From an uncultured Streptococcus sp. (GTDB lineage: Bacteria > Bacillota > Bacilli > Lactobacillales > Streptococcaceae), in the NCBI RefSeq assembly GCF_963528215.1, contig NZ_CAURVL010000010.1, positions 6,472-70,471 on the forward strand: a stretch of 64,000 nucleotides of DNA, written 5' to 3'. The notes beneath the pieces are model-generated. The model had not been told where the DNA came from. It searched no databases and worked only from the letters and a program-made list of their open reading frames with translations. Positions within the stretch are counted from its first letter, which is position 1, and each line of letters begins with the position of its first letter. A program made the translations under genes and the position numbers. Positions 9,611 through 18,512 of this stretch are shown piece by piece.

Positions 9611-10321
9611 ATGGCAACAAGTTTTTTGTTCTTTATTTCTGTTTTTCTGGCGGGGATTCTATCTTTTTTCTCGCCCTGTATTTTACCGCTTATGCCAGTC
9701 TATGTGGGGATTTTGCTGGATTCTGATCAGCCGAAAACAGTTCGATTTATGGGAAGAGACATTTCCTGGTATGGTCTAGCTAAGACGCTCTGCTTTATAG
9801 CTGGCTTATCAACTGTATTCTTGGTTTTAGGCTACGGAGCTGGCGCTCTAGGGCAAGTCCTTTATGCCCCTTGGTTTCGCTATGTTCTGGGCGGGATTGT
9901 CATTCTACTGGGAATCCACCAGATGGGAATCATTAATATCCAGCAGCTGCAAAAGCAGAAAAGTATGCAGTTTAAGAAGGATGGGAATCGGAGTGATTTT
10001 CTTAACGCTTTTCTCTTGGGTATTACCTTTAGCTTTGGTTGGACGCCCTGTGTGGGACCTGTTCTGAGTTCTGTTTTAGCAATTGCAGCTTCTGGAGGTA
10101 ACGGCGCTCTTCAAGGCGGTTTGCTTATGTTGGTTTATACTTTGGGCTTATCGCTTCCTTTTTTAGCTATGGCTTTGGCTTCCGGCTGGGTATTACAGCG
10201 ATTTGCGAAACTCAAACCTTATATGGGAATGCTTAAGAAAATAGGCGGTTTCCTCATTATTCTAATGGGAATTTTGCTAATGCTGGGAAATCTCAACATC
10301 CTAGCATCGTTATTTGGATAA
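9611..10321 (+). CDS. ccdA: CcdA membrane electron transporter, copy 1
   Basis: SFFSPCILP and GWTPCVGP cysteine motifs. Confidence 0.93.
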   Translation: MATSFLFFISVFLAGILSFFSPCILPLMPVYVGILLDSDQPKTVRFMGRDISWYGLAKTLCFIAGLSTVFLVLGYGAGALGQVLYAPWFRYVLGGIVILLGIHQMGIINIQQLQKQKSMQFKKDGNRSDFLNAFLLGITFSFGWTPCVGPVLSSVLAIAASGGNGALQGGLLMLVYTLGLSLPFLAMALASGWVLQRFAKLKPYMGMLKKIGGFLIILMGILLMLGNLNILASLFG

Positions 10322-10348
10322 AAATTATATAATCAAAGGAGTCACACC

Positions 10349-10669
10349 ATGAAAAAAATTACTACACTTACAATCGCTGCACTTAGTATCTTTGTCCTAG
10401 CTGCCTGCTCTAATCAAAAATCAGATTCTGATATGAAGAAGATGGATGACAGCAGCATGATGAAGAAGGATGATATGAAAAAAGACGACATGAAGAAGGA
10501 GGATATGAAAGACTCTAGCATGTCTGATGATAAAATGAAAAAGGATGATATGAAGGACTCTTCTATGATGTCCGACAGTAAGTCTGATATGAAAGATGAT
10601 ATGAAATCAAGTGATTCAAGCATGAAGGATGAAATGAAAGATTCATCCGAAATGTCATCTGACAAATAA
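10349..10669 (+). CDS. methionine-rich repeat lipoprotein (MxKDx-like pentapeptide repeats)
   Basis: Lipobox LAAC (Cys20); mature chain almost entirely M/K/D/S, 17 Met in 87 residues; RBS aaggag. Confidence 0.85.
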   Translation: MKKITTLTIAALSIFVLAACSNQKSDSDMKKMDDSSMMKKDDMKKDDMKKEDMKDSSMSDDKMKKDDMKDSSMMSDSKSDMKDDMKSSDSSMKDEMKDSSEMSSDK

Positions 10670-10739
10670 GAATTCCACCATAGGAAAGAAAGTCGTCAAT
10701 TTTGTCGGCTTTCTCCTTATTTTGAGAGGAAAGAAAACG

Positions 10740-11303
10740 ATGAAAAAATTATCCATTTTAACTGTTAGTCTGCTTTGTGCAGGCTTACTGGGAGCTTGCT
10801 CAAATCAGAAAATGAACTCGGAAATTTCTAAAAGTGATAAAAGCAATATGCAAACAAAAGCTGATTCTGAGCAATCTATCAAGATGGCCAAGGACTTTAG
10901 TCTGCAAGGAGTAGACGGCAAGACCTACAAGCTGTCTGATTTCAAAGGCAAGAAAGTCTATCTAAAGTTTTGGGCTTCTTGGTGCTCTATCTGTCTATCC
11001 ACACTTGGAGATACCAATGATTTGGCTAAGGAGCAGTCAGGAAAAGATTATGTTGTCCTATCGGTGGTGTCTCCAACTTTTAACGGAGAAAAGTCTGCCG
11101 ATGATTTCAAGGAATGGTATAAGTCTTTAGATTACAAAGACTTCCCAGTTCTCATGGACACCAAGGGAGAATTGCTGAAAGAATACGGTATTCGCTCTTA
11201 TCCATCTGCTCTTTTTGTTGGCAGCGATGGTTCACTTGCCAAGACACATATTGGCTACATGAGCAAGGAAGATATTGAGAAAACACTAAAGGAAATCAAG
11301 TAG
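10740..11303 (+). CDS. TlpA-family thioredoxin-like lipoprotein
   Basis: Lipobox LGAC; FWASWCSIC; cis-Pro loop SYP. Confidence 0.92.
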   Translation: MKKLSILTVSLLCAGLLGACSNQKMNSEISKSDKSNMQTKADSEQSIKMAKDFSLQGVDGKTYKLSDFKGKKVYLKFWASWCSICLSTLGDTNDLAKEQSGKDYVVLSVVSPTFNGEKSADDFKEWYKSLDYKDFPVLMDTKGELLKEYGIRSYPSALFVGSDGSLAKTHIGYMSKEDIEKTLKEIK

Positions 11304-11312
11304 AAAGGTGCA

Positions 11313-12428
11313 ATGAACATGGAAGGAAAATGGAAAATTCTTCTGGTTATGCTTGGCTTGCTTGTCTGCTTTGGACTTGTCTATGTGATTGCAGGAAATG
11401 GTAAGCAATCATCTCCAGAACAGATCAAGAAAGCATCTATGAGTAAGACAGAAGCTGTATCCCAACAAAAGCAAGAAGACGTTAAGGAAGAAGATAAGCG
11501 GGAGATTTATCTGGCTGGCGGCTGTTTCTGGGGCGTAGAGGAATATTTTTCTCGTGTGCCTGGTGTACTTGATGCAGTGTCAGGCTACGCCAATGGTAAA
11601 GATGATACAACCAAGTATGAGTTAGTCTCTCAAACTGGTCACGCTGAGACTGTTCACATCACTTATAATGCCAAGAAAATTTCGCTAAAAGAAATTCTGC
11701 TTCACTATTTCCGCATCATTGATCCAACTTCTAAAAACAAGCAGGGAAATGATCAGGGTACCCAGTATCGGACAGGCGTCTACTATACGGATGAAGCTGA
11801 TCTTGATACTATTAATCAGGTCTTTGATGAAGTTGCTAAGAAGTACGACAAGCCTTTAGCTGTTGAAAAAGAACCTCTGAAAAACTTTATCAAGGCAGAA
11901 GATTATCATCAGGATTACCTAAAAAAGAATCCTAATGGATATTGCCATATTGATGTCAATCAAGCTGCTTACCCAGTTATCGAAGCTAGTCGCTATCCTA
12001 AGCCTAGCGATGAAGAGATTAAGGCTAAGCTCTCGCCAGAAGAATACGCAGTCACACAAAAGAATGACACAGAGCGGGCCTTTTCTAACCGCTATTGGGA
12101 TAAGTTCGATGCTGGTATCTATGTGGATGTGGTGACAGGCGAGCCTCTCTTTTCATCAAAGGATAAGTTTGACTCAGGCTGCGGTTGGCCCAGTTTCACC
12201 CGTCCTATCAGTCCAGATGTTGCAACTTACAAGGAAGACAAGAGTTTCAATATGACTCGAACGGAAGTTCGTAGTCGGGTTGGAAATTCCCATCTGGGCC
12301 ATGTTTTCACTGATGGCCCTAAGGACAAGGGAGGCTTGCGCTACTGCATCAATAGTCTGTCAATTAAGTTCATTCCAAAAGCTGAGATGGAGGAGAAAGG
12401 CTACGGTTATCTTTTAGATTATGTTTAA
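11313..12428 (+). CDS. msrAB: membrane-anchored methionine sulfoxide reductase MsrAB
   Basis: N-terminal TM segment; GGCFWG (MsrA); SGCGWPSF and RYCINS (MsrB). Confidence 0.97.
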
Positions 12429-12487: not shown

Positions 12488-13222
12488 GTGTATTCAATTA
12501 TGATTGTAGAGGATGAGTATCTGGTAAGACAGGGGATTGCGTCCTTGGTAGACTATGAACAGTTTGGTATGCAAGTTATTGCTCAGGCTGAAAATGGAAG
12601 AGAAGCTTGGCAGAAATTTCAGGAAAATCCTGCTGACATTCTGCTGACCGATATCAATATGCCACAGATGAACGGCCTCGAACTGGCCAAGCTAGTCAGA
12701 GACCAAGCTCCTAAGTGCCATATCGTTTTTCTGACGGGCTATGATGATTTTGACTATGCTCGGACTGCCATTAAGCTAGGTGCAGATGACTATCTTCTCA
12801 AGCCATTTTCCAAGGATGATGTTGAGGAAATGTTGGCCAAGCTGCAGATCAAGCTTGATAAGGAACGTAAAAAAGCTCAGATTCAAAACTTGGTCGATCA
12901 GGGACAGCAATCTGAGTTGGAAGAGGCTATTCATGCGCGTCTATCAGATTCAGAATTAAGTCTGAAAAGTTTGGCTTTCCAATTGGGGTTTAGTCCGTCC
13001 TACCTTAGCGTTCTTATCAAAAAAGAATTAGGTCAGCCCTTTCAGGATTATCTGATACAAGAGCGGATGAAAAAAGCAAAACTCTTACTCTTAACTACAG
13101 ATTTGAAGATTTATGAAATAGCAGAGCAGGTAGGTTTTGAAGATATGAACTATTTTTCTCAGCGCTTCAAGCAAGTTGTTGGGCTGACACCTCGGCAGTT
13201 TAAAAAAGGAGAGGAGAAATGA
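12488..13222 (+). CDS. two-component response regulator, receiver plus AraC HTH (YesN-like)
   Basis: EDE, TDINMP, YLLKP; C-terminal IAEQVGFEDMNYFSQRFK; GTG start after aaggag; TGcTATAAT upstream. Confidence 0.93.
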   Translation: MYSIMIVEDEYLVRQGIASLVDYEQFGMQVIAQAENGREAWQKFQENPADILLTDINMPQMNGLELAKLVRDQAPKCHIVFLTGYDDFDYARTAIKLGADDYLLKPFSKDDVEEMLAKLQIKLDKERKKAQIQNLVDQGQQSELEEAIHARLSDSELSLKSLAFQLGFSPSYLSVLIKKELGQPFQDYLIQERMKKAKLLLLTTDLKIYEIAEQVGFEDMNYFSQRFKQVVGLTPRQFKKGEEK

Positions 13223-14922
13223 AACGATATCCGCTTCTTATCCAGTTGATTGTCTATATTTTTCTGCTGGTTCTTTTACTCTTGGGGGTTGTTGGGAGTC
13301 TTTACTATCAGACTAGCTCGGAGACTATTCGACAGCTGACAGAGCGGACGACGCGTAATAGTATGGAGCAAAGCGGCCAGTTCATTGCTTCCTATTTGCA
13401 AAAATTAAAGCAAACTACATCTACACTGAGTAAGGAAGAAACGATTCGGAAGTTTGCTCAGAATCAAGAAAACAGCGAAATGTCAGTTCAGTCTTTGATG
13501 AAAACCATTATTGAGACAGATCCGGATTTGGTGTCAGCAGTTTTGGTTACCAAGGACGGGCGCGTGGTATCGACAGATACTCAAATCAGCATGCAGACAT
13601 CTTCTGATATGATGAATGAAAAATGGTATCAGGAAGCGGTTCATACCAGAGCCATGCCTGTCTTGACTCCTGCTCGCAAGGAGTCTCTATCATCAGAGAA
13701 GGAGAAGTGGGTTGTTTCCGTCACTCAGGAAGTGGTGGATGAAGCAGGGCAGAATCTCGGTGTTTTGCGCCTGGATATCGGCTACAATAGTCTCAAAGCC
13801 TATCTGGATAGGCTTCAGCTAGGAAAGAAGGGCTTTAGCTTTATTGTCAATAGCCAGCATGAATTTGTCTATCATCCTAAGAAGAGTGTTTATTCATCCA
13901 GTCAGGAAATGAAAGCGATGCAGCCCTATATCTCAGTCAAGGACGGTTACGCAGACCAGAAACAGGCTTTCGTCTACCAGATTGATATTGCGGACAGCGA
14001 CTGGACTTTAATTGGCGTCGCTTCATTAGAGCAGTTGCAGATGCTTCAGTCACAGATGCTTTATTCTTTTGTGGGAATGGGCATTTTAGCACTCCTGCTG
14101 TGCTTGACTGGTATTTGGTTTGTTCTGCGTTTGTGGATTAAGCCTCTGCAGAATCTGCAGGCTGTCATTCTGAAGATTGGGGCAGGTGACTCAAACCTTC
14201 GGGCAGAAGCAAAGGGTTCTCCAGAGTTGGTTGACTTGGCTCAGCAGTTCAATAAAATGCTGGACCAGATTGAACAGCTAATGGAAGCTGTCAAGACTGA
14301 AGAACAAAATGTTCGCCGCTATGAGCTCCGAGCTCTCTCAGCTCAAATCAACCCTCATTTCCTTTATAATACCTTAGATACTATTGTCTGGATGGCTGAA
14401 TTTAACGACAGCAAGCGTGTTGTTGAGGTAACAAAATCACTCGCTCAGTATTTCCGCTTAGCGCTTAATCAAGGGCACGAACAGATTTCTCTTAGAGATG
14501 AGATTGATCACGTTCGTCAGTATCTCTTTATCCAGAAGCAGCGCTATGGTGACAAGCTCCAATATGAGATTGAAGAGGATGAATCCATAGCTGATTATAA
14601 ACTGCCCAAGCTGGTACTTCAGCCTTTGGTTGAAAATGCCATCTACCATGGCATCAAGGAAATTGACCGACAGGGCATGATTCGCGTTACTGCGGCAGCA
14701 GAAGAGGGGCAGCTGATATTATCTATCTATGATAATGGCCGAGGCTTTGAACTCCAAAATTCAGTGGACAAGACCCTTCTTCGCTTAGGTGGAGTTGGTC
14801 TGAAAAATGTCGATCAACGATTAAGATTGCAGTTCGGAGACGACTACCATATGGAAATCCAGTCCGAACCAGATAAATTTACCCAGATTAGTCTTTATTT
14901 GCCACTAGTTACAGATGATTAG
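13219..14922 (+). CDS. sensor histidine kinase (YesM-like; Cache, HAMP, His_kinase)
   Basis: QINPHFLYNTL, LQPLVENAIYHG, DNGRG; two TM segments. Confidence 0.93.
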   Translation: MKRYPLLIQLIVYIFLLVLLLLGVVGSLYYQTSSETIRQLTERTTRNSMEQSGQFIASYLQKLKQTTSTLSKEETIRKFAQNQENSEMSVQSLMKTIIETDPDLVSAVLVTKDGRVVSTDTQISMQTSSDMMNEKWYQEAVHTRAMPVLTPARKESLSSEKEKWVVSVTQEVVDEAGQNLGVLRLDIGYNSLKAYLDRLQLGKKGFSFIVNSQHEFVYHPKKSVYSSSQEMKAMQPYISVKDGYADQKQAFVYQIDIADSDWTLIGVASLEQLQMLQSQMLYSFVGMGILALLLCLTGIWFVLRLWIKPLQNLQAVILKIGAGDSNLRAEAKGSPELVDLAQQFNKMLDQIEQLMEAVKTEEQNVRRYELRALSAQINPHFLYNTLDTIVWMAEFNDSKRVVEVTKSLAQYFRLALNQGHEQISLRDEIDHVRQYLFIQKQRYGDKLQYEIEEDESIADYKLPKLVLQPLVENAIYHGIKEIDRQGMIRVTAAAEEGQLILSIYDNGRGFELQNSVDKTLLRLGGVGLKNVDQRLRLQFGDDYHMEIQSEPDKFTQISLYLPLVTDD

Positions 14923-15142: not shown

Positions 15143-15850
15143 ATGGAATCACCTTTATTTTTTGTTTCAGTTTTTTTAGCTGGTATTTTGTCCTTCTTTT
15201 CCCCTTGTATTTTTCCCTTATTGCCGGTTTATATTGGCATTTTATTGGATGACAAGGAGGTCAAGACCCTGAAAGTATTTGGCCGGGAGCTTGCTTGGCA
15301 AGGCATGGTTAGGACACTCTTTTTCATTGCGGGCATCTCGACAGTCTTCTTTTTGCTAGGCTTTGGGGCAGGCTTTCTAGGAACAATTATTTACAGTTCG
15401 ACCTTTCGTTATGTGATGGGAGGCCTCATCATTCTGCTAGGTCTGCATCAGATGGAACTAATTAATATTCGCCAGTTACAGATTCAAAAGAGTTTGACTT
15501 TCAAAAAGAATGGCCAGAAACATCATTTTTGGTCTGCTTTCTTACTGGGGATTACCTTTAGTTTTGGTTGGACTCCCTGCATTGGTCCGATTCTCAGCTC
15601 AGTCTTGGCCTTAGCAGCTTCGGGTGGGAATGGTGCTTTTCAGGGAGCGATTCTGACCTTGATTTACACTTTGGGAATGGCTCTGCCTTTCTTAATCTTG
15701 GCTTTGGCATCCAGCTTTGTTATGCAGTATTTCAATAAAATCAAGCCTTATATGGGCCTGATGAAGAAAATCGGCGGAGCCCTGATTATTTTGATGGGAA
15801 TTCTGCTGATGCTAGGACAGCTCAACGCCCTGTCTGGACTTTTTGGATAA
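15143..15850 (+). CDS. ccdA: CcdA membrane electron transporter, copy 2
   Basis: SFFSPCIFP and GWTPCIGP; paralog of 9611-10321; ATG after agaggag. Confidence 0.93.
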   Translation: MESPLFFVSVFLAGILSFFSPCIFPLLPVYIGILLDDKEVKTLKVFGRELAWQGMVRTLFFIAGISTVFFLLGFGAGFLGTIIYSSTFRYVMGGLIILLGLHQMELINIRQLQIQKSLTFKKNGQKHHFWSAFLLGITFSFGWTPCIGPILSSVLALAASGGNGAFQGAILTLIYTLGMALPFLILALASSFVMQYFNKIKPYMGLMKKIGGALIILMGILLMLGQLNALSGLFG

Positions 15851-15865
15851 AAAGGAGAAAGAAAT

Positions 15866-16441
15866 ATGAAAAAAATCGTTACTTTATTAGCAACTGTTTC
15901 AGCAGTGGTCTTTTTGGCAGCCTGCTCGGAACAGGAAGAGAAGCCCATGACTATGCCCACAACCAGCAGTTCATCTAGTGAGACCCCTCTGACAAGTACT
16001 GTCACCCAAGCAGCTGTCGGTCAAGAGGCACCTGACTTTACTCTGCAATCTATGGATGGAAAAACAGTCAAACTTTCTGACTACAAAGGCAAGAAAGTTT
16101 ATCTAAAATTCTGGGCTTCTTGGTGCGGACCTTGTAAGAAGAGTATGCCAGAATTGGTCGAATTGGCTGGTAAAACAGATCGTGATTTTGAAATCTTGAC
16201 AGTTGTAGCACCAGGTCTCCAAGGAGAGAAATCTGTCGAGGAATTTCCAAAATGGTTTCAAGAACAAGGTTATAAAGATGTACCAGTTCTATTTGACACT
16301 TCAGGAGAAATTTTCCAAGCCTATCAGATCCGCAGTATCCCGACTGAAATCCTCATTGACAGTCAAGGGAAAATCGGTAAAATCCAGTTTGGAGCTATCA
16401 GTAATGCTGATGCAGAAGCAGCTTTCAAAGAAATGAAATAA
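15866..16441 (+). CDS. TlpA-family thioredoxin-like lipoprotein, copy 2
   Basis: Lipobox LAAC; FWASWCGPC. Confidence 0.92.
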   Translation: MKKIVTLLATVSAVVFLAACSEQEEKPMTMPTTSSSSSETPLTSTVTQAAVGQEAPDFTLQSMDGKTVKLSDYKGKKVYLKFWASWCGPCKKSMPELVELAGKTDRDFEILTVVAPGLQGEKSVEEFPKWFQEQGYKDVPVLFDTSGEIFQAYQIRSIPTEILIDSQGKIGKIQFGAISNADAEAAFKEMK

Positions 16442-16644: not shown

Positions 16645-17889
16645 TTAAGCGCTAGCACCTGATGTTGCATCAGCTCCTCCGTCTCCATGACCTCCATCGC
16701 CCCCAGCATCAGAAGCACCAGAAGTAGCGTCTGCGTCTCCATGACCTCCGGCAGGAGCAAATGGTCCGCTGCCTCCAACCAAACGTTGGCCAGTTTCTTT
16801 TAAGTACCAGTCAAGCCATGGTTGGAAATTAAAGACGATTTCATTGATTCCTGCGTATGATCCGTCAGGATAGTACATAGCTTGGTAGTTATGGGTATTG
16901 ATAACACCTGCAGGTGAACCAGGGACGATTGTACGAACGTATTCTTGGTTTCCGTTGCGAAGCGTTCCGATAACCCACTCTACATTTTTCATCCGAGCTG
17001 GTGGGAGAGAACCATGAACGGTTGACATGCGGCTACCTGATTGAGGTGGCACACGTTTAGCAAACATGGTGTCTGGGTCTTGGTGGGCGTTGTTGTAGTA
17101 GAGGAATTGGTTGTTATCGTCAGCGTATGTCAATTCAAATGGCATAGCTTTTAAGAACATATCAATTTGATTAACAGTCAAGATACCATGGTCAAGTTTG
17201 ACATAAGTATCGCCTGAAACAGCACCAGTGATTTCAGCGACTTTTTCCACCCATTCTGGATCATCTGGATCAACTTCTGTAATTGTCGTAGCGATTGGCT
17301 TTCCGCAGTCTAAGTCTTCAGGTTCAATTGGTTTTGGTTTTTTCAATTTTGAAACGACCTCTACATATTTGATAAAGTTATCTAAGCATGTTTCAAGGAA
17401 ATTCACAGTTCCTTCGTTGGTAATATTACCATCATTGTCAAAAGCTTCCTTGGCTTTGCCCAGCAAGAACTCATTGCCTGGGAGGGTGTAAGCATTGACG
17501 CCAGGAGCATCTAGGATTTTACGTAGGTGAACTTGAGCACGGGAAGTTCCTTGGTCGTAGTAAGAAGCACCGACAATCATGACAGGCTTGTTTTCGAAAG
17601 GATGAACCTCGTAAGAGAGCCATTCTAAGACACTCTTCAAAGGAGCGCTGATAGTATGATTGTGCTCAGGGGTTGCGATGATGACACCGTCTGCACGTGT
17701 GATTTTGTTATACAAATACCGCAATTGGAAGCTTTCATCCCATTTTTCATCCTGGTTAAACATTGGGACTTCATCGATTTCTAAGACTTCCAATTCAAAT
17801 TTAATTTTGAACTGACGACGGATGAATTCCAATAATTTTCGGTTATATGATTGTTCGTAGTTTGATCCTACAATTCCAACAAATTTCAT
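16645..17889 (-). CDS. NAD(P)H-dependent FMN reductase fused to a PAS-like domain and a tail with two DATSGAS motifs
   Basis: GIVGS, ATPEHN flavodoxin-like fold; MPFELTYADDNNQFLYYN PAS-like segment; Gly/Asp-rich tail. Confidence 0.88.
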   Translation of the reverse strand: MKFVGIVGSNYEQSYNRKLLEFIRRQFKIKFELEVLEIDEVPMFNQDEKWDESFQLRYLYNKITRADGVIIATPEHNHTISAPLKSVLEWLSYEVHPFENKPVMIVGASYYDQGTSRAQVHLRKILDAPGVNAYTLPGNEFLLGKAKEAFDNDGNITNEGTVNFLETCLDNFIKYVEVVSKLKKPKPIEPEDLDCGKPIATTITEVDPDDPEWVEKVAEITGAVSGDTYVKLDHGILTVNQIDMFLKAMPFELTYADDNNQFLYYNNAHQDPDTMFAKRVPPQSGSRMSTVHGSLPPARMKNVEWVIGTLRNGNQEYVRTIVPGSPAGVINTHNYQAMYYPDGSYAGINEIVFNFQPWLDWYLKETGQRLVGGSGPFAPAGGHGDADATSGASDAGGDGGHGDGGADATSGASA

Positions 17890-17906
17890 TCTTTCAGTCT
17901 CCTATC

Positions 17907-18512
17907 TTACAATTTTTCCCAATTAAATTCTTCAGCATCTTTGCGAAGCAATTCTTGTGCGTTGCGCAATTTTTCAGTGATTTTGACAAAGATACGGAAG
18001 TCATCAAAGATAGCATCCAATTTTTTTACAACGTCAAGATCTACCAAGTCTCCGCTTTGGTCAAATGCTTGAAGAGAATGTGAAAGCAAGAACTCATCTG
18101 GAAGAACAGTTGCCTTGATTTCTGGAGCGTTCAAAATTTGACGGAGCTGCAATTGGGCACGAGAGGAGCCAAGTGTACCATAAGAAGCACCAGTGATCAT
18201 GACCGGCTTGTTCAGCAGTGGATAAATACCATAAGAAAGCCAAGCCAGAGCATTCATGAGCACAGCTGGGATAGAATGGTCGTATTCAGGTGTGCCGATA
18301 AGTACGCCATCCGCAGCATCGATTTTTTCGGCAATTTCTGATACCAACTCAGGGACGTTTCTGTCAGCAGGTTTATTAAACATTGGGATATCTTTAATCT
18401 CAACCAGCTCGATTTCAGCCTTGTCAGCGAAGTGCTTAGACATATATTGAAGAAGTTGCCGGTTTGTAGAACGGTTAGAATTTGTTCCAACAATTGCAAT
18501 AAGTTTTAACAT
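17907..18512 (-). CDS. NAD(P)H-dependent FMN reductase
   Basis: AIVGT, GTPEYD, GASYGTLGSSRAQ. Confidence 0.92.
   Translation of the reverse strand: MLKLIAIVGTNSNRSTNRQLLQYMSKHFADKAEIELVEIKDIPMFNKPADRNVPELVSEIAEKIDAADGVLIGTPEYDHSIPAVLMNALAWLSYGIYPLLNKPVMITGASYGTLGSSRAQLQLRQILNAPEIKATVLPDEFLLSHSLQAFDQSGDLVDLDVVKKLDAIFDDFRIFVKITEKLRNAQELLRKDAEEFNWEKL

Follow-up and report, generated by a model that had tools for sequence, protein, structure and literature searches.

A methionine-rich predicted lipoprotein encoded in the ccdA-tlpA-msrAB operon of streptococci is a candidate rechargeable buffer for hypochlorite-type oxidants

RESULTS

A Met-rich gene is located between ccdA1 and tlpA

The window analysed here, the whole 64,000-nucleotide stretch of contig NZ_CAURVL010000010.1 from an uncultured Streptococcus sp., contains a forward-strand cluster of redox genes. 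It begins with ccdA1 (9611..10321), which encodes a membrane thiol-disulfide electron carrier (PF02683 DsbD_TM, E 3e-19), and continues with a gene encoding a Met-rich predicted lipoprotein (10349..10669), with tlpA (10740..11303), encoding an Etrx1-type thioredoxin lipoprotein with a CSIC motif and Redoxin and AhpC-TSA domains, and with msrAB (11313..12428). The latter encodes an MsrAB fusion with an N-terminal hydrophobic anchor, which scores above the cut-offs of TIGR00401 and TIGR00357, contains PMSR and SelR domains and is 97% identical to MsrAB of an S. sanguinis record (L122). Profile matches identify the next two genes, on the same strand, as a YesN/ModR-like response regulator with receiver and AraC domains (12488..13222) and a YesM/ModS-like sensor histidine kinase (13219..14922). 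A second relay (15146..16441, forward strand) comprises ccdA2 (15146-15850) and a gene for an SdbB/Etrx2-type thioredoxin lipoprotein (15866-16441; CGPC). The components of the CcdA-Etrx1/TlpA-MsrAB pathway, namely ccdA, a CxxC thioredoxin lipoprotein, an anchored MsrAB and a second ccdA2-sdbB relay, are all present. An earlier note on this DNA had placed the Met-rich gene between ccdA and tlpA, just upstream of msrAB; the order ccdA-gene-tlpA-msrAB stands, and msrAB is not immediately next, as tlpA intervenes. Convergent with sdbB, the reverse strand contains two NADPH-dependent FMN reductase-like genes (16645-18512), the longer of which has an extra C-terminal region.

The Met-rich gene encodes a protein of 106 residues with a signal peptide, a lipobox and pentapeptide-like Met repeats, and from our reading of the sequence it is preceded by a Shine-Dalgarno-like site on the forward strand (AAAGGAG, 10335..10341), 7 nt 5′ of the ATG. 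The lipobox is LAAC, with the codon for Cys20 at 10406-10408, and would anchor the protein through lipid on the external side of the membrane. In accordance with the Met-laden tail that had been claimed to follow this lipobox, the mature chain has 17 Met in the 86 residues past Cys20 (87 including the Cys); Met is its sole hydrophobic residue, His and Cys are both absent, 53% of residues are Asp, Glu or Lys and, Met apart, the chain is of the charged/Ser type. Eight of the 16 Met-Met intervals have a spacing of five residues, with units of the MKKDD type. Since Met makes up 2.1% of residues in long ORFs of the window's genome (binomial P ~3e-12), the Met content of the chain is not due to chance, and the gene contains the top-ranking 50-residue Met window among the genome's ATG ORFs of at least 100 aa. 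AlphaFold2 gave no confident fold from a shallow alignment of 14 sequences (pLDDT 55, pTM 0.10); the chain is likely disordered, and the model is consistent with the disorder proposed earlier, if weakly so given the shallow alignment. A Pfam scan of the protein found no family better than E 0.05, a word-indexed protein search returned 20 relatives that were short or fragmentary and nameless, and an exact database look-up of 11 full-length free Met-rich proteins found none, so that no database name is attachable to the gene.

Contigs from RNA runs of a relative (90-95% identity) span the Met-rich gene in four of four runs, and are silent on strand, level and transcript end. A promoter scan returned 18 sites against 12.9 expected, with no convincing site 5′ of the gene. 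A perfect TATAAT without a -35 box is present at 10328-10333, just 5′ of the Shine-Dalgarno site, and is probably too near the start of the gene to serve as its promoter. A reverse-strand ORF (10414-10665) was considered and rejected as a shadow of the Met repeats.

The gap between the Met-rich gene and tlpA contains a conserved hairpin followed by a pyrimidine tract (10688..10723, forward strand), in which 10689-10698 pair with 10703-10712. Folding gave z-scores of -1.9 to -2.8 in all four loci that were folded, and in an alignment of 12 loci 95% of cells were paired, with 2 of the 10 pairs changed on both sides. The hairpin is present 3′ of the Met-rich stop codon in sanguinis-type loci, with differing sequences; it is absent from the list produced by the terminator scan and is not evident in five divergent loci, where the Met-rich gene and tlpA abut. 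It is possibly a partial terminator or an mRNA stabiliser, and may allow more of the small Met-rich protein to be made than of the enzymes. At two loci (L060:1836-2174 and L068:3343-3562) the stretch from the Met-rich gene to tlpA is longer by ~200-300 bases, which come in at the hairpin and may be a small inserted element.

The Met-rich gene is linked to msrAB in streptococci and is under purifying selection

A search of 251 streptococcal genomes gave 78 matches at E<=0.001 and 46 at E<1e-20, the window's own gene included. All 46 homologues occupy the ccdA-gene-tlpA-msrAB slot; the co-occurrence with msrAB that had been suggested is therefore borne out, with no streptococcal homologue unlinked to msr at this threshold. 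Nine of the weaker matches comprised five regions where a free gene holds this position, three with a Met-rich TlpA only and one that was unrelated, and two further divergent free genes in this slot (L267, L293) bring the divergent free genes to seven. Among 27 anchored-msrAB loci of relatives, seven have the free gene, two a Met-rich TlpA linker and 17 neither, while one is cut off; mitis-type operons are without the gene. With 17 of 27 such loci lacking either form, the Met-rich module is accessory and dispensable. The two-component pair is found 3′ of msrAB in most loci, including operons without the module. At one locus (L032:1846-2555), ccdA1 is split into two overlapping ORFs, through a frameshift or a sequence error, and the Met-rich gene is intact.

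Across the mature chain of 23 gap-free alleles, 24 of 675 possible non-synonymous changes were observed versus 42 of 99 synonymous ones, demonstrating that the ORF is a real gene under purifying selection. The non-synonymous rate of the mature chain (0.036) is lower than that of the TlpA linker from the same genomes (0.090) and near that of the folded TlpA domain (0.021). Across an alignment of 40 alleles, 53 of 69 non-Met codons but none of 17 Met codons show a third-position transition, and non-synonymous changes affected Met residues less than other residues (6/153 vs 54/522, P=0.014; 3/153 vs 21/522 in the 23 gap-free alleles). The added constraint on Met beyond that on other residues is thus modest. 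The length of the free protein varies with repeat number, from 63 to 129 aa.

The module is also found fused to TlpA

The Met-rich module is fused at the N-terminus of msrAB-linked TlpA in streptococci other than those with the free gene, as well as in a second Lactobacillales family and a clostridial order, and its attachment to the MsrAB-feeding thioredoxin in three groups further backs the link to Msr. In the order that includes Peptostreptococcus canis, this msrAB-linked TlpA type occurs in 15 of 201 genomes, with msrAB adjoining in all 15, and its linker contains 7-28 Met in ten, 4-6 in two and 1-3 in three; linkers of the Lactobacillales family contain 6-14 Met in nine of 16 genomes and 0-2 in the other seven. 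A phylum sample yielded the type in two of 401 genomes, both streptococcal. Linkers with at least 4 Met were found in 55 of the TlpA homologues among the 120 matches listed, a figure that is not a frequency because the search query is itself Met-rich. Repeat units in 50 fused linkers are unrelated, with means of 19% Met and 0.6% His, and at two loci (L215 in genome G1197 and L268 in genome G377) a Met-rich stretch is located on the N-terminal linker of MsrAB as well as on TlpA.

Comparable linkers are poor in Met. SdbB/Etrx2 linkers contain 0-3 Met in five of five cases, three of them from genomes with a Met-rich Etrx1 linker, and in 47 candidate lipoproteins of the window's genome the first 45 residues contain no more than 3 Met, which indicates that the module tracks the thioredoxin that feeds MsrAB. 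In the window, the SdbB/Etrx2-type lipoprotein is without the module and the TlpA linker is short and Met-poor (2 Met in 27 aa). Within a single locus, 78 aa of the free protein match the fused TlpA N-terminus at 55%, and the window's protein does so at 49% over 82 aa; both forms coexist at L074, L075 and L267. A 38-row tree of TlpA intermingles the free, fused and bare forms, with a poorly separated streptococcal base that does not give the order of events. Judging from these alignments, the simplest origin of the free gene is likely a duplication of the 5′ end of a fused tlpA, comprising the signal peptide and Met-rich linker. A further TlpA homologue (P0079) has a rhodanese-like domain (PF00581) inserted past a short Met-containing linker.

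Comparison with other Met-rich exported proteins

The TIGR02953 family is defined by an export signal and, after it, Met-x-Lys-Asp-x repeats that are imperfect. Both are found in the Met-rich protein, as its lipobox signal and MKKDD-type units, and the suggested comparison with the MXKDX family gave a score of 18.1 bits (E 0.0019), falling short of the cut-off of 41. Four of seven streptococcal relatives score 19-25 bits and for three the model is not listed, while three of three proteobacterial examples pass the cut-off. The nearest ESM Atlas clusters bear an automatic MXKDX-repeat name (score 0.96-0.98), which serves as a lead only. Because of the score below the cut-off, we describe the protein as MrpX-like in its working and do not file it in TIGR02953.

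The streptococcal loci are kin rather than independent, and a wider test was therefore sought. A DNA pattern of three Mx[K]Dx-type units identified at least 80 loci in species-representative genomes; L109 and L135, which do not encode Met-rich exported proteins, were dropped from the 80 listed, leaving 78. An earlier pattern was rejected, as it missed the window's own gene and its three non-streptococcal matches in 401 class genomes lacked the protein motif. Among the matches listed, an Msr gene lies within the locus (<= ~8 kb) in 51 of 78 cases; of these 51, 47 have an MsrP-like gene, most with an adjoining cytochrome b, and 13 have MsrA or MsrB, including four with MsrA/B only. For two MsrP-like proteins, the match to NF003767 has an E-value of ~1e-20 and scores below the cut-off of that model. 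The partner is mostly MsrP-like in Proteobacteria and is ccdA-tlpA-msrAB in three of three Bacillota loci among the matches listed. No Msr gene is nearby in 27 of the 78 listed loci, 12 of them from the Bradyrhizobium group; in B. japonicum the genes are reported to be scattered but under shared SigF control (supplement of PMC4436054).

DUF1223 adjoins the repeat gene in 12 of the 80 loci among the matches listed (L089-L168), and is likely a further part of MxKDx systems. In a Limnobacter record (L131:3860-6127), a TIGR02953 protein is encoded beside DUF1223, msrB and msrA at a locus without MsrP, and by its gene content this appears to be a Gram-negative case of a Met-rich protein paired with MsrA/MsrB. 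In a Nitrosotenuis record (L125:3692-4447), an archaeal exported protein that combines MKKDS repeats with an fn3-like domain is encoded close to a CcdA-like gene. Viral contigs gave a single pattern match, in an unrelated context; a contig of the viral collection (L081:2698-3249) encodes a 183-aa protein of 34% Met with MMKKD/MMKEK repeats and no signal peptide.

In the passages of PMC4436054 covered, MrpX of Azospira suillum is 20% Met and 44% charged, is oxidised by hypochlorite and regains its reduced form in 50-60 min; mrpX is induced by hypochlorite and not by H2O2, and its mutants have mild phenotypes. MrpX of the YedYZ system and the window protein (20% Met, 53% charged, pLDDT 55, and beside tlpA-msrAB at 46 of 46 loci) are alike as small, exported, highly charged proteins of ~20% Met, proposed to be unfolded and encoded beside Msr. 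However, MrpX is a soluble protein of the periplasm, associated with the molybdenum/cytochrome b enzyme YedYZ (MsrPQ-type) and the ECF sigma factor system SigF/NrsF, neither of which is found here, where the partners are ccdA, tlpA and msrAB together with the response regulator and kinase genes; the window protein is a Gram-positive predicted lipoprotein linked to the CcdA-TlpA-MsrAB thiol relay and a two-component system, and its module also occurs fused to TlpA. According to the parts of the papers covered, BcrX of Brucella melitensis (TIGR02953; PMC8315932) and C3568 of UPEC (PMC8550376), the latter under two-component control, are likewise Met-rich, have a similar pentapeptide rhythm and are co-transcribed with an Msr system, but their partners are MsrPQ-like.

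The same operon and second relay (ccdA2-sdbB/etrx2) are known in S. pneumoniae as CcdA1-Etrx1-MsrAB2 (PMC3914529), but described as three genes, and in S. gordonii as CcdA1-Sgo_1177-MsrAB (PMC7034828), where sgo_1178 is never named in the passages covered. S1 Fig of the latter passes over the locus tags that fall between ccdA1 and tlpA, sgo_1178 and ssa_1116, which we infer to be the Met-rich gene. Recycling of exoprotein Met by MsrAB in Bacillus cereus (PMC5526929) is a comparable Gram-positive antioxidant strategy, but, as far as the passages covered report, involves general exoproteins and a cytoplasmic MsrAB, with no dedicated Met-rich protein. The full-text literature searched, which also takes in parts of PMC13488963, PMC9404787, PMC10880999 and PMC2909906 and leaves most subscription papers and supplementary transcriptome or mutant tables outside its scope, does not describe any Met-rich protein in the ccdA-tlpA-msrAB operon, in keeping with the earlier note, which knew of no characterisation in streptococci.

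DISCUSSION

We consider it probable that the Met-rich protein locally buffers HOCl-type oxidants and is recharged by MsrAB via TlpA/SdbB and CcdA, a relay that has been demonstrated in S. gordonii (PMC7034828) and S. pneumoniae (PMC3914529). The presumably lipidated chain would absorb hypochlorite-type oxidants (HOCl or chloramines) on the outside of the membrane and, once oxidised, would be re-reduced by MsrAB, encoded two genes downstream, with electrons that would reach the enzyme through TlpA and CcdA. In this way the chain could shield the envelope proteins around it, among them the cysteine relay. Its capacity would probably suffice for rechargeable buffering at close range and not for detoxification in bulk.

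The choice of oxidant follows from published rate constants for Met, 3.8e7 per M per s with hypochlorite and ~1e-2 per M per s with H2O2 (PMC4436054). Assuming 1e4-1e5 copies per cell, the calculated uptake is millions of HOCl at 1 uM and 2-17 H2O2 per second at 1 mM; HOCl-type oxidants are therefore favoured and H2O2 scavenging is negligible. Catalytic scavenging of H2O2, put forward previously, would protect these catalase-negative, peroxide-producing streptococci and accord with the H2O2 sensitivity of S. gordonii msrAB, ccdA and tlpA mutants (PMC7034828), but even the assumed 1e5 copies would consume ~17 H2O2 per second at 1 mM, and, together with the response of mrpX to hypochlorite and not H2O2 (PMC4436054), this makes such a role highly improbable. 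What is reported of the streptococcal (PMC7034828) and fusobacterial (PMC9239216) operons is H2O2 phenotypes or induction, and on kinetic grounds a Met sink does not account for these.

The other explanations concern metal, structure and signalling. Met-rich stretches bind Cu(I), and the chain might be a Cu(I)/Ag(I) sponge that guards the cysteines of CcdA and TlpA from thiophilic metal, with MsrAB merely keeping its Met reduced; fusion beside a CxxC domain would suit this role. The metal sponges SilE and PcoE, however, combine His and Met in their mature chains and belong to copper/silver resistance loci, whereas neither His nor Cys occurs in the mature window protein, His is similarly scarce in the fused linkers and the neighbours are Msr and redox genes. 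As a P1B-ATPase or multicopper-oxidase motif was also found at none of the 80 MxKDx loci among the matches listed, in a narrow test that small copper genes fall outside, we regard a metal sponge as unlikely. Homology to the TlpA N-terminus, variable repeat number and the many species without the module are what would be expected of a by-product, a duplicated signal peptide and flexible TlpA tether with Met repeats arising from slippage and no function of its own. Yet the free form tethers nothing and is intact in 46 of 46 genomes, it is under stronger purifying selection than the real linker, unrelated repeat units converge on ~19% Met and other lipoprotein linkers are Met-poor, rendering a functionless by-product improbable. 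A comparably poor prospect is that the oxidised chain signals to the YesMN/ModRS-like two-component system, or is a standing substrate that tunes the relay. The pair adjoins msrAB in most loci and its homologues regulate the operon (PMC9239216, PMC11034029), the pneumococcal response regulator inducing ccdA1-etrx1-msrAB2 (PMC11034029). The regulators are nevertheless retained in operons without the module, and proteobacterial MxKDx genes are under other regulators such as SigF/NrsF.

Several observations count against the HOCl buffer that we favour. The module is dispensable, 27 of the 78 listed MxKDx loci are without a nearby Msr gene, the added constraint on Met is modest, mrpX mutants have mild phenotypes, the H2O2 phenotypes or induction of the operons fall outside its reach, and Petrocella atlantisensis (P0061), an environmental organism that would not encounter neutrophil HOCl, likely has the fused form. 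A broader reading, offered tentatively and held to be rather doubtful as a whole, is that the MsrAB relay of Bacillota bears portable methionine armour, in which unrelated repeats of ~20% Met were repeatedly gained and lost on TlpA, and sometimes on MsrAB. In sanguinis-type streptococci this armour would have split off as a free lipoprotein, placed before a hairpin permitting its overproduction; the main job of the relay there would be to recharge a surface capacitor against neutrophil HOCl rather than to mend scattered damage, and how well an oral streptococcal species tolerates HOCl would depend on whether the gene is present.

The operon is important for tolerance of oxidants, for colonisation and for survival in macrophages (PMC7034828, PMC3914529, PMC11238559), and no physiological substrates of the streptococcal surface MsrAB pathway are named in the literature passages covered. 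The Met-rich gene offers a dedicated candidate substrate for this pathway, and, as it is flanked by the published ccdA1 and tlpA knock-outs, bears on those mutants. The role of a Met sponge has so far been known from Gram-negative bacteria with a different repair enzyme, and the form proposed here is Gram-positive and MsrAB-linked. If the proposed function is correct, the sacrificial-methionine strategy would reach beyond the MsrPQ systems of Gram-negative bacteria to the thiol relay of a Gram-positive, and one solution would be wired to two unrelated reductases.
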